DNA of 61,680 nt, filler included. It is 4 parts of 4 records of this genome, joined end to end, with 100 filler letters (N's around TTAATTAATTAA, not from the genome) between each part and the next. Parts side by side here need not be neighbours in the genome. Positions count along the whole stretch, not along the records: positions 55,017 to 61,680 come from SRR20825006_2552; 3 more parts are not named here. One strand, given 5' to 3'. A program made the translations under genes and the position numbers. Numbering within the stretch: position 1 is the stretch's first letter; each line of letters starts with the position of its first letter. The notes beneath the pieces are model-generated. The model searched no databases, had not been told where the DNA came from, and saw only the letters and a program-made list of their open reading frames with translations. Positions 57,653 to 61,680 of the stretch are shown piece by piece.

Positions 57653-58393
57653 TTAAAAGCTATAGCTAAATGGTCTATTAAATGCGATTCCTTTAATTTG
57701 TCCGAATTCTGGACTTCTAGCGCCGAAGATTGATTTGATGTATTTTTTTACAGCGGCGGCGGTTGATATTAGCCCAGCGTTTTCTAGATATAGGGTTCTG
57801 TTTCGCAGAAGCCTTGCGTTGCTAATAGCTGTATGTGCTATAGACACATTTGCATTGCTTAGTACTAATTGGTCTGCCCTAGCCTTTAATGCTGGAATTG
57901 CTAAATCAGCTTCGTTGGGTGCATAGCTTGGTTCAGATTCTAAGACTGTTATTAGTGCTTTGAAATGCTGAATTAGCTGATCATAGGATTGTTGACTGGA
58001 ACTAATAGTATAAGGTGCAGGTTCTGCAGGGTCTATTGGGATTATAATTTTGGAAGCCCTTTTGCCTTGTATTTTCCGATTATAACCTTTTGCATCATTA
58101 ATTTTTTCTGTGTTCGCTGCTGTGGTTTGAAATGCGTTTAATATCCTTGTGGATAATTTACGCAACCCCTCAAAAGCTTCTACCCGATCGTTTACTTTGT
58201 TATTGTACTCGGTGTTAAACTCTATTACGTTTTGCAAGCTGTTTGTTGCGGTTGTGTAATAAAGTGAGAGCTGTGGATAAGCTAAGCTGGCATTGTTTGG
58301 ATTGTACGTAATGCCATAGCCATTTACAAATGCTAATAGGTCTTGAAAATTCGCTACGTTTCTTGCATGACCGACTTCTGATCTTGATCTCAT
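57653..58393 (-). CDS. Conserved Bacteroidota hypothetical protein (SE.GHA.NVANF family), predicted helical
   Basis: MRSRSEVGHARNVANFQDL...YNP...SSSQQSYD...YAPNE...VKKYIKSIFG; start at ATG 58393. Confidence 0.8.
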   Translation of the reverse strand: MRSRSEVGHARNVANFQDLLAFVNGYGITYNPNNASLAYPQLSLYYTTATNSLQNVIEFNTEYNNKVNDRVEAFEGLRKLSTRILNAFQTTAANTEKINDAKGYNRKIQGKRASKIIIPIDPAEPAPYTISSSQQSYDQLIQHFKALITVLESEPSYAPNEADLAIPALKARADQLVLSNANVSIAHTAISNARLLRNRTLYLENAGLISTAAAVKKYIKSIFGARSPEFGQIKGIAFNRPFSYSF

Positions 58394-58677
58394 ACTAAAA
58401 ATATTTAAGTTATTACAGCAGGACTGCGCCAGCAATCCCTACCTAAATGTAGCTGATACTAAGGTAATTAGCTTGCGGTAAACCCCCCATTTTGTAGGGG
58501 GATTTCCCCCAATTTTATAAAAGGCTGAATTTATTGGGGTTTTGGAGGGTGTTGGGAGGTGTTTTTGGGGGTTATACTCTTAATAGTATAGGATAAAGAT
58601 GTAAAAATGGCTGATATTTTTAATTAAGGGGGTGGAAATAATCAATTAATTATTGTGGTTTTATAGCTTCAAATATT

Positions 58678-59337
58678 TCATTCTAAATGCTTTTTAATAA
58701 TTAAAGAAGGGTCGGTTTTTTTATTTGTCCAATCAGAAATACTTGGATGGGCTGCTATAATTACTTTCTTATTATTATCATTTTTAAAAACTTGAGTTTT
58801 CCACTTTCTGTTGTTGTTTTCAATAAATTGGTCAATTAAAATATTTGCTTTCAATTTCTTTTTTACAAAAATCCCAGGTGTTTTTCCGAAACATAAAATA
58901 GTTTTAATATTTAAATCATTAATTACCTTTTCGTGAAAACTCCAACATTTTTCAGCGTATTCATTGTATAATTCTTTTATATCATTTTCTCTTGATGATC
59001 TTACAAAAACAACATTACTTGCAGGCACTTCATATGGGGATAATTCCAAATTTTTCAATAAATGTAATATTCTCGGTTGTAAACCTTGCGCTCCTGGAAC
59101 GTTTCCATTCCAACTTTCATCTTTATAGGAAGACCAATTTGGTGTTTTATAAGATAGAACTTTTTCTGTATGCCATTTTAAAGTTTCGCTTTTTTGTTTT
59201 ACAATATTTCCTCCAGGGTTTATGCCCAATAAATATAAATTCTTATTCCCCGAAAAGGCATTTCGTCCAGAATAAAATACAGAACCCGAAACTTCTAATA
59301 AATCATTTGGAATTATTTTAGCAAATATTTCAATCAT
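58678..59337 (-). CDS. Uracil-DNA-glycosylase-superfamily protein
   Basis: LLGINPGG (motif A-like), SNVVFVRS, ILCFGK, AAHPS (motif B-like). Confidence 0.7.
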   Translation of the reverse strand: MIEIFAKIIPNDLLEVSGSVFYSGRNAFSGNKNLYLLGINPGGNIVKQKSETLKWHTEKVLSYKTPNWSSYKDESWNGNVPGAQGLQPRILHLLKNLELSPYEVPASNVVFVRSSRENDIKELYNEYAEKCWSFHEKVINDLNIKTILCFGKTPGIFVKKKLKANILIDQFIENNNRKWKTQVFKNDNNKKVIIAAHPSISDWTNKKTDPSLIIKKHLE

Positions 59338-59406: not shown

Positions 59407-61680
59407 TTAAATCTCATTCAAAATTTCCACAAACTCTCCAACAACTTTCATTTCTGTAGCATTTTCTTCCGTAATGATGATGTTTTGATACATACTATCA
59501 AAAGAGTTTGGTCTTAATACAATGGAAATATGTCCCCATGTTTCTTCCAAAACAGACTTTTCACTTGAATAGGTTTTGATAGTAAAAGCTGAGTTGAAAT
59601 CAGGATCTTGAACCTCCCTATATTCTACTAAAACGATTTTACCATTTCTGCTACCTCCAGTATATGGCTTAAACAAACAAATTGAACCATTCGGAATGAC
59701 TCTATTCATAGATTCACCAATAATTCTACAAGCGAAATAATTGTTTTTTGAACTGTTTTCAGGGCCTTCAATAAGTTTGAAATCCTTCTCGGATTGCAAT
59801 TCGCTGAATGTGCCTGCGGCAGCGTAAAAGTCAAATAATGGAATTGGATTTTTCAACTTATCTTCGAACCTGAAAGATTGTTGAATAGGAATTACTTTGT
59901 TAGTTTTTATTGGTTTAACACTCTTTATTACTGGCTTCTCCTGTAAGTAGTTGTACATTGTTGATGTAACAGGATCAGCTAAATTGAATCTTATTTTCAC
60001 CACAGGAAGTTGCTTCCCTTTATCGTTAGGCATCGTGGTTTGTTTCACTGTATTCAGTTTAGGAGATATTTCACCCATGTAATAGAAGTCCATTCCTTCA
60101 TCATTATTTTTCTTAATAAATAAAGGAAGGCGAATTGGTCCATTTTGACCTAATATTGATTTAACGTCTTTACTGTTAATTTTTCGGTTGGACTTAGACA
60201 TCCAATCAAACTCTTTATTATTTACAAACTCATCTTCATACTTGGTGGATTCCGCAATATGATCTTCTTTGTGATAATTTACAAAAATTGGACAATGCTC
60301 ATTATTTGGACTAACTAAATATCCACCCACATTTTGGGCTATGGGATTTTCGGAAACATTCAATATTCTAAAAACATCTTTTCGAGAATACTTTCTGTAT
60401 AGTACAAATCCATTTTGCCATTTGACTGCATCAAATAATCTATCAAATTCATATATAGAGTAAACTACAGAATCTAGTAGAAATCGCTTAAACACAGTTT
60501 GGTTCAAGTGTTTTTTAAAAGCGTTTGAAAAGATAAATTCTCCATTAACGATACTAAGTGTTTCTATTTCATATATCTCTTTAGCAGACAGCATTTTGCC
60601 ACCTTTCTTTTCGCGAACAAACTCAAAATTTAAATTAGACACACAAGATTTAATAGTCTCATCGGTTATTGAATAATGATACTTCTTAAGAACCATTTCT
60701 TTCAAATTTTTCACCGAAAGTTCACCTGAATTAATAAGTAATTTGAGGATCAGACTTTCCTCAAGCCGTTTCGAGTTATTTATTTCTTTAGAAAACAGCT
60801 CCAATAGTTTCACTTGTAGCTTAGATAATTCTGAGTTTTCGATTGTATCAACCTTTGAGACAAAATTGTAATAGGAATTCGAGTAATCAACAAATAAAAA
60901 AGGATCGCGAGAACCATGCTCTATAAAATCCATCATCATCGGAGGTCGACCTAACTTAAACTTTAATAGATTGTAATCCTTTTTTAAATCTGCTAGCAAT
61001 TTCATATTCGCAGAATCAATGGATTTAAAGATTTTATCTTTTGTTATTTCATCAAAATTAATGGTCGAAGCTCCAGAAATCATTCTACTTCCTTCCGTTA
61101 ATAATTTCCTCAAAGAGTCTTTGTTGTATGATGTATCGCCATACAAAGCAATTGGAATAAGGTAATTGTTTTCATAGTTACCAATGAAATCGATAACCGT
61201 CAGATAGCCTTTTCCATCCACTTTTCTTAATCCCCTTCCCAATTGTTGAATGAAAATTATAGCAGAATCTGTGGGCCGGAGCATAATAATTTGATTGATT
61301 TTGGGTATATCAATTCCTTCATTAAAAATATCTACAGTGAATATATAATCGAGTCTTTCACTCAGATTATCGGTCTCTAGTTTTTCAATTGACCTAGCTC
61401 TTTTTTCCTCAGAACTATCTCCAGTTAAAGCAACAGTATTAAACCCCTTTGAATTAAATAATTCAGATAATTCTATGGCTTCTTTTTTTTTGGAGCAGAA
61501 GATTAAACCTCTTGTTATTCCATTATCGCTTCCATAAAATTTTGCTTGTTCAATGATTCTTTCTACCCGTTCACTTGAAATTAAATATCTGAAATCTGAT
61601 TTGTTATCGACTTCAGTGTTATCAATAGATAAATCAGTAACGCCATAGTAATGAAACGAACTAAGCATTTCCTCTTCCAT
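59407..61680 (-). CDS. SF2 helicase + DUF3427 + C-terminal S24 peptidase-like domain (SauUSI-like type IV restriction protein), 5' part outside the window
   Basis: Helicase-C motifs GLIFCS, FTVDIFNEGIDIP, LRPT.S..IFIQQLGRGLRK, VIDFIGNY; DUF3427 YSRKDV...IFVNYHK...YEDEF...WMSK...FYYMG; S24 AAAG, GESM, TIK. The first Met is internal because the gene is cut by the window edge. Confidence 0.9.
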   Translation of the reverse strand: MEEEMLSSFHYYGVTDLSIDNTEVDNKSDFRYLISSERVERIIEQAKFYGSDNGITRGLIFCSKKKEAIELSELFNSKGFNTVALTGDSSEEKRARSIEKLETDNLSERLDYIFTVDIFNEGIDIPKINQIIMLRPTDSAIIFIQQLGRGLRKVDGKGYLTVIDFIGNYENNYLIPIALYGDTSYNKDSLRKLLTEGSRMISGASTINFDEITKDKIFKSIDSANMKLLADLKKDYNLLKFKLGRPPMMMDFIEHGSRDPFLFVDYSNSYYNFVSKVDTIENSELSKLQVKLLELFSKEINNSKRLEESLILKLLINSGELSVKNLKEMVLKKYHYSITDETIKSCVSNLNFEFVREKKGGKMLSAKEIYEIETLSIVNGEFIFSNAFKKHLNQTVFKRFLLDSVVYSIYEFDRLFDAVKWQNGFVLYRKYSRKDVFRILNVSENPIAQNVGGYLVSPNNEHCPIFVNYHKEDHIAESTKYEDEFVNNKEFDWMSKSNRKINSKDVKSILGQNGPIRLPLFIKKNNDEGMDFYYMGEISPKLNTVKQTTMPNDKGKQLPVVKIRFNLADPVTSTMYNYLQEKPVIKSVKPIKTNKVIPIQQSFRFEDKLKNPIPLFDFYAAAGTFSELQSEKDFKLIEGPENSSKNNYFACRIIGESMNRVIPNGSICLFKPYTGGSRNGKIVLVEYREVQDPDFNSAFTIKTYSSEKSVLEETWGHISIVLRPNSFDSMYQNIIITEENATEMKVVGEFVEILNEI

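Follow-up and report, generated by a model that had tools for sequence, protein, structure and literature searches.

Regulators of the SOS type that are members of peptidase family S24 cleave themselves on RecA filaments, at an Ala-Gly or Cys-Gly bond and by means of a Ser-Lys dyad (PMC8565304). In LexA and in IrvR, a latent C-terminal degron for ClpXP is exposed at the cut site (PMC5742171). Type I restriction is suppressed after DNA damage via removal of the R subunit by ClpXP (PMC3874165; PMC12707154), HsdR being the subunit removed in the restriction alleviation of EcoKI (PMC3874165). We analysed a window of 61,680 nucleotides (parts of four records of one genome joined end to end, filler included), at the end of which lies part of a gene for a type IV restriction enzyme that resembles SauUSI and bears an S24 tail at its C-terminus. 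Judged by sequence and structure model, this tail is a LexA-type, presumably self-cleaving domain with intact machinery, and such tails would likely switch restriction enzymes off when the host DNA is damaged.

A LexA-type tail behind a SauUSI-like enzyme

The open reading frame (ORF) runs from 61680 to 59407 on the minus strand and encodes 757 amino acids (aa), its 5' part lying past the window end. The window thus holds the 3' two-thirds of the gene, 757 of about 1147 aa. Indeed, the first methionine in the window corresponds to Met391 of an orthologue of 1149 aa that is 86% identical (L006), which places some 390 aa, the nuclease among them, outside the window. From the orthologues, a PLD nuclease and the first ATPase lobe are expected in this 5' part. 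The original prediction of a SauUSI-type architecture was borne out by the Pfam domains and by the best match in the PDB, SauUSI itself (7CLG; aa 2-579 against 398-951, E 3e-113); PADLOC assigned the protein to mREase_IV (E 4e-123). As for the N-terminal nuclease, which the same prediction could not confirm, the PLD motif HxK...GSxN stands at the N-terminus of 106 of 106 full-length homologues listed, and the PLD nuclease is also present in L006; the window's own copy lies outside.

An intact LexA-type S24 domain had been proposed to follow DUF3427, and all the motifs quoted for it were found in place. Pfam Peptidase_S24 matched aa 620-708 with 28.8 bits (cut-off 23.3). The PDB gave no match when searched with the single tail sequence. 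In a profile search, the three motifs aligned with VAAG, GMSM and TVK of LexA (best E 0.003), and the spacing of 34 residues between Ala622-Gly623 and the Ser is LexA-like. An AlphaFold2 model of aa 604-757, based on an alignment of 74 sequences, reached a predicted local distance difference test (pLDDT) score of 86, with low values in the cleavage-site loop (model residues 17-27). The top Foldseek matches of the model were all LexA, CI or UmuD (E 8e-6), RecA-bound LexA, CI and UmuD structures being among the fold matches, and comparison with the LexA C-terminal domain gave a VIA Z of 12.5 (124 aligned residues, root mean square deviation 3.7). Identity to solved S24 proteins in these fold matches was 15-23%. 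The tail would work like the LexA C-terminal domain without being part of a repressor: a LexA/CI-type repressor was rejected, as no helix-turn-helix (HTH) match was found in the window protein and the tail follows DUF3427.

The catalytic residues, whose conservation had been left for a survey, are kept in homologues. Among the proteins matching the tail (1681, of 416-1325 aa), the 120 listed all contain DUF3427, and 119 of these close proteins keep the Ala-Gly, the Ser and the Lys together. The same was observed in 54 of 55 tailed genome loci, that is, the 61 loci related to the window enzyme, nearly all labelled Bacteroidota, minus six that are tail-less or split. Since close homologues are too similar to be telling, we turned to 1140 representatives of 50% clusters (E<=0.001), from which the best 150 were used; 128 were aligned and 22 were dropped as too short to span the site. 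In these distant tails the Ser (127/128) and the Lys (126/128) are the top columns, the median column reaching 48%. The scissile Ala is kept in 117, and [A/C]-G, Ser and Lys occur together in 104 of the 128. Column conservation and the LexA-fold match rule out a chance motif match.

The tail is under purifying selection. In nine disjoint close pairs drawn from 52 sequences, the ratio of nonsynonymous to synonymous substitution rates (dN/dS) was 0.155 for the tail, 0.154 for the coupler, 0.094 for the SRA domain, 0.059 for the helicase and 0.65 for the linker. A functionless passenger, i.e., a repressor fragment fused by chance, might be suggested by the existence of tail-less relatives. This explanation is largely refuted and keeps a very small probability: the dN/dS of 0.155 rules out a degenerate passenger, the catalytic residues form the most conserved columns, the domain has been fused repeatedly to defence enzymes, and a canonical S24 domain has been fused independently to a UvrD-HsdR_N nuclease (see below).

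An assembly chimera was ruled out by the 55 tailed loci and by coverage in single contigs. In each of the runs X1 and X2, which may be the source of the window and whose contigs extend about 11 kb beyond its end, a single contig contains this gene stretch and shows no differences from it; in run X4, from a second study, one contig spans the whole S24-DUF3427 part. A pattern scan of metagenomes for the window DNA returned orthologues and no identical DNA, and a search of the nearest genome (G001) with the window query did not find the SauUSI-like gene.

Spread of the tail over unrelated enzymes

We then looked at the proteins that carry the domain. Partners were scanned in 73 representatives, chosen by length from the best 150 of the 1140. 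The most frequent was a Schlafen-g3 helicase (24), followed by DUF3427 (7), type ISP enzymes (6), type I R subunits (4, one of them weak and downstream of the S24 domain), type III/ResIII (3) and HTH (3); XhoI, Mrr, UvrD, MrfA-Zn (DruE-like), PLD and GIY-YIG occurred once each, and 20 representatives had no recognised partner. The S24 domain is mostly terminal, two ISP proteins running about 200 aa beyond it. One representative of 287 aa, P0175, consists of two tandem S24 stretches. On a tree of 54 labelled domains, 22 partner changes were needed (minimum 11), and well-supported branches force at least five changes for Schlafen-g3 and, for each of ISP, type I and type III, at least three. By its sequence distribution, the S24 tail is thus a portable module common to many unrelated restriction enzymes.

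In the phylum of G001 and the window, probably Bacteroidota, the module was present in 19 of 401 sampled genomes (about 5%), in one copy each, 12 on Schlafen-g3 proteins, 7 on SauUSI-like enzymes and none alone. The SauUSI-like gene itself occurred in nine of these genomes, seven times with and twice without the tail. The phylum of G406, a locus of which is labelled Myxococcota, gave 35 of 251 genomes (14%). Its best 30 loci comprised 13 HsdR, 4 MrfA-Zn, 2 ISP, 2 Schlafen-g3 and 2 HTH proteins, with 7 left without assignment, and 27 of the 30 had all three motifs. Five of the 13 HsdR loci were extended to type I operons. In all five the tail sits on HsdR, downstream of hsdM, and no S24 domain was found on proteins in the M or S position; hsdS was recognised in four, with a 424-aa ORF at its place in the fifth. 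In two loci (L207:5469-6575 and L208:5218-6216), SIR2-like and DUF4268 genes lie between hsdS and the tailed hsdR. Plasmids yielded one match to the module and phages five weak ones, mostly to annotated repressors or regulators.

The tail can also be missing. L055:6831-9755 encodes an 80%-identical SauUSI-like enzyme without linker and tail that retains its Nudix partner. It nests among tailed enzymes on the tree of enzyme bodies, and no S24 remnant was found nearby; by these signs, it is a clean tail loss and a natural deletion control. Moreover, in two genomes of the G405 phylum, UvrD, HSDR_N_2 and a canonical LexA-type S24 domain are joined in one protein of 813-834 aa (L203:740-3181 in G1064, L204:371-2875 in G1076), which suggests a separate fusion and hence convergence.

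Possible consequences of tail cleavage

Our preferred reading is that the tail acts as a DNA-damage off-switch, through RecA-triggered autocleavage and then degradation by ClpXP; we hold it tentatively, at a probability of roughly 0.45. Filaments of RecA on single-stranded DNA (ssDNA), or RecA*, would trigger the cut at Ala622-Gly623, leaving an enzyme with the ssrA-like end FYAAA, which ClpXP would degrade. In this way the host's own repair intermediates would be spared, and restriction alleviation would be wired into the enzyme itself. We infer tail cleavage, RecA* as the trigger, a working degron and the sparing of repair intermediates alike. The original prediction had been of a type IV restriction or defence enzyme with a switch. 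Its architecture stood, whereas the tail proved not to be peculiar to type IV. The prediction named a switch of activity or oligomeric state and left the direction open, and the FYAAA end would point to destruction.

Ala-Ala precedes the predicted cut in 107 of the 128 distant tails. In controls searched with a regular expression, it did so in 10 of 30 LexA-type proteins from the G405 phylum and in 2 of 20 UmuD-sized proteins from relatives of G001; since Ala-Ala is rarer there, it is dispensable for autocleavage. In G001, the tmRNA tag has YALAA at its end. ClpX was found in five of five genomes tested, four of them with the tail, and RecA in four of five, among them each of the three tail carriers. 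In vitro, SauUSI needs no methylation to cut at gaps, bubbles and loops of ssDNA (bioRxiv 2022.12.11.519956), which provides a motive for alleviation in a type IV enzyme.

The conserved catalytic machinery would also serve for the opposite outcome, in which the nuclease-translocase is held back by the intact tail and set free by RecA*-triggered cleavage for late or abortive defence, for example upon ssDNA from phage replication. UmuD, activated via RecA-mediated cleavage (PMC8565304), is the parallel. Many partners (Schlafen-g3, DruE-like, UvrD-nuclease) resemble infection-triggered effectors, and a role in abortive infection has been proposed for the ssDNA nuclease of SauUSI (bioRxiv 2022.12.11.519956). 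However, a variable linker and many unrelated folds are hard to square with a specific inhibitor; a tail moving among such folds on a loose linker would sit better with a degradation tag than with an inhibitor fitted to one enzyme. Enzymes of types I and ISP would have to act at DNA entry, an HsdR switched on during repair would endanger the chromosome (as PMC3874165 leads us to expect), and the freed enzyme would end in Ala-Ala. We consider activation unlikely.

Quite unlikely, too, is a docking or oligomer switch without degradation, in which the enzyme would be placed or assembled by its tail, through binding to RecA filaments or through pairing like that of the LexA C-terminal domain, with cleavage doing no more than reset this. 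S24 domains dimerise, and this speaks for such a switch, as do the LexA C-terminal fold and the matches to RecA-bound structures of LexA, CI and UmuD. Mrr, on which one tail sits, is switched by its oligomeric state (PMC12707154). SauUSI, however, is already dimeric through its PLD domains (PMC7913695; its dimeric state is also given in bioRxiv 2025.10.16.682607), so that the tail is not needed for pairing. Moreover, tail loss in L055 leaves an otherwise intact enzyme gene, and the Ala-Ala bias is left unexplained.

The trigger might also be something other than RecA (a phage protein, a partner or a slow spontaneous timer), or the tail might cut other proteins in trans. The subfamily is indeed far from LexA (15-23% identity, best profile E 0.003) and has insertions of its own; for the LexA-like IrvR, an exception to the RecA rule is reported (PMC7101444). 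Yet RecA-mediated cleavage is common to the characterised SOS-type S24 regulators (PMC8565304), and the Nudix gene is the sole conserved partner gene; we regard this alternative as very unlikely.

Several points weigh against the off-switch. Ala-Ala precedes the site in 7 of 10 HTH-S24-sized repressors from relatives of G001 (same type of search), so that it may be merely inherited, and the Ala-Ala counts include kin, that is, related sequences that are not independent. FYAAA has the final Ala-Ala and an aromatic first position, with positions 2-3 off consensus, and its match to the E. coli degron consensus [LFYW]-[LAR]-L-A-A is partial: position 2 is depleted of most bulky residues, Ala occupies the place for which Leu is preferred, and of the tags ending in Ala-Ala 39% were weak (PMC10862746). 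The scissile Gly is replaced by Thr or Ser in 15 of the 128 distant tails. A type IV enzyme lacks a cognate methylase, so that the classic rationale of alleviation does not extend to it directly, and the ssDNA activity of SauUSI is inhibited by ATP, Mg2+ and single-stranded DNA-binding protein (bioRxiv 2022.12.11.519956). Tail-less enzymes persist (SauUSI, two of nine in the phylum sample, L055), and the control is therefore dispensable. Finally, phages could take advantage of an enzyme that RecA* switches off.

Upstream of the Nudix-enzyme gene pair, the SOS-box motif CTAA-N5-TTAG was found at 0 of 49 loci (mean of 0.7 in shuffled sequence) and at 0 of 3 recA control loci. The motif GGA-N5-TCC, which we take to be an SOS box, was found at 1 of 49 (1.2 in shuffled sequence) and at 0 of 3 recA controls.

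To our knowledge, it is only for a few type I enzymes that one understands in detail how restriction systems spare their own chromosome in the course of repair. A full-text literature search, with subscription journals and supplements outside its scope, returned no paper in which restriction enzymes with S24 tails are described. The name LexA is not mentioned in PMC3141236 and PMC12707154 and appears in PMC3874165 in a reference title only; LexA, S24, peptidase and protease are not mentioned in the YprA-helicase preprint PMC12458937. The S24/LexA architecture is already reflected in database names (JGI names with LexA). SOS control of the SauUSI-like enzyme via its tail is plausible, and the module may connect the SOS signal with restriction in a so far undescribed way. 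Chances seem even that bacterial immunity has in the mobile S24 subfamily a general SOS switch at the level of proteins, by which RecA filaments would directly destroy or unleash a nuclease. If so, one S24 subfamily would have been grafted repeatedly onto type I, ISP, II, III and IV enzymes and Schlafen- or Druantia-like nucleases, adding a mechanism of restriction alleviation without a transcriptional step. A self-contained RecA sensor on a nuclease would tie the SOS signal directly to immunity, and DNA damage would be predicted to open or close these bacteria to phage and gene transfer.

Enzyme body, neighbouring genes and known systems

The part of the SF2 motor in the window is the Helicase_C lobe with QQLGRGLR; the ResIII/DEAD lobe was seen in the orthologue L007. 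In the SRA pocket, Y454, F466, V467, D483 and W493 align with Y831, F841, I842, D858 and W868 of SauUSI and are invariant in 51 of 51 orthologues. At the position of M829 the window protein has G452, and Gly is found in 50 of the 51. Among the 61 related loci, a gene with a Pfam NUDIX domain lies directly upstream in 53, mostly with an overlap of a few bases, and downstream in 2, and no other neighbour is conserved. By sequence, then, the enzyme body is an ordinary SauUSI-like cassette, and the window enzyme is predicted to cut methylated foreign DNA. Near this cassette we noted, upstream of the Nudix gene in L014 and L061, a gene judged by its sequence to be Schlafen-g3/DUF2075-like together with a small ORF, and HIT-like small genes in other loci. 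The tailed genes of L022 and L048 are each divided between two ORFs (737 + 393 aa and 257 + 906 aa), perhaps through a frameshift or an assembly error. The features of the window gene are given in Table 1.

Table 1. Position of the gene, its domains and predicted functional residues in the window
Feature	Position	Strand	Evidence
3' two-thirds of SauUSI-like type IV restriction gene with C-terminal S24 tail	59407..61680	minus	PDB 7CLG match, PADLOC mREase_IV
SF2 helicase/translocase C-terminal lobe (Helicase_C, aa 53-152)	61225..61524	minus	Pfam
DUF3427 (aa 296-579), coupler and SRA-fold reader	59944..60795	minus	Pfam E 1.5e-80, 7CLG alignment
SRA target-recognition domain (aa 428-579; SauUSI 806-951)	59944..60399	minus	SauUSI alignment
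Variable Lys/Pro-rich linker (aa 583-611)	59848..59934	minus	31% mean identity, dN/dS 0.65
LexA-fold S24 autopeptidase tail, predicted (aa 612-757)	59410..59847	minus	Pfam, model, dN/dS 0.155
Predicted scissile Ala622-Gly623 (Ala622, 59817-59815; Gly623, 59814-59812; aligns with LexA Ala84-Gly85)	59812..59817	minus	Profile alignment
F618-A622 (FYAAA), candidate ssrA-like ClpX degron	59815..59829	minus	Inferred C-terminus after cleavage
Catalytic Ser657 (GESM; LexA Ser119 position)	59710..59712	minus	Alignment
Catalytic Lys702 (TIK; LexA Lys156 position)	59575..59577	minus	Alignment

Two further ORFs lie downstream on the same strand. The first (58678-59337, 219 aa) begins 70 bp after the enzyme gene and has a weak NCBIfam match to uracil-DNA-glycosylase (UDG) family 4 (E 0.006, far below cut-off); its motifs GINPG ... 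HPS presumably resemble those of uracil-DNA-glycosylases. It had no Pfam or PADLOC match and no homologue in the related loci, and might possibly be a second modified-DNA defence gene. A single-sequence structure model of the ORF downstream of the enzyme gene had a pLDDT of 33. The second ORF (57653-58435, 260 aa) had no Pfam, NCBIfam or PADLOC match and one homologue, at the edge of L010.

Compared with SauUSI of Staphylococcus aureus (7CLG), the window enzyme has the SF2 motor, coupler and SRA domain in the same order, with the PLD domain known from orthologues, and five of the six modelled 5-methylcytosine pocket positions are identical or conservative. The adjoining MutT/Nudix gene of SauUSI (PMC3141236) is seen in the related loci as well; for the window gene, the corresponding place falls outside the window. 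Unlike SauUSI, the window enzyme carries about 175 extra C-terminal residues, the linker and the S24 autopeptidase, and has Gly for the intercalating Met829, so that it may target another sequence. The SauUSI motif HxK(x)4E (PMC7913695) lacks its acidic residue (+7) in those tailed orthologues that were listed.

The tail shares with LexA, lambda CI and UmuD the fold, the Ala-Gly site, the Ser-Lys dyad and a cleavage loop whose low pLDDT suggests flexibility. It differs from them in that the window protein lacks an HTH and the passenger is a 1000-aa restriction enzyme. Moreover, it belongs to a distinct subfamily that is found mostly on restriction and defence enzymes, HTH partners accounting for 3 of 73 representatives and 2 of 30 loci.

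With the alleviation of EcoKI HsdR (type IA/IB), the proposed switch has in common the loss of the nuclease subunit alone after damage, and in type I operons the tail sits on HsdR itself. For EcoKI, however, recognition takes place during its translocation on host sites that are unmodified, and the two reviews searched (PMC12707154 and PMC3874165) describe no S24 domain on this enzyme. The tail, in contrast, would be a built-in sensor that reads RecA*, one also found on type IV, ISP, II and III-like enzymes.

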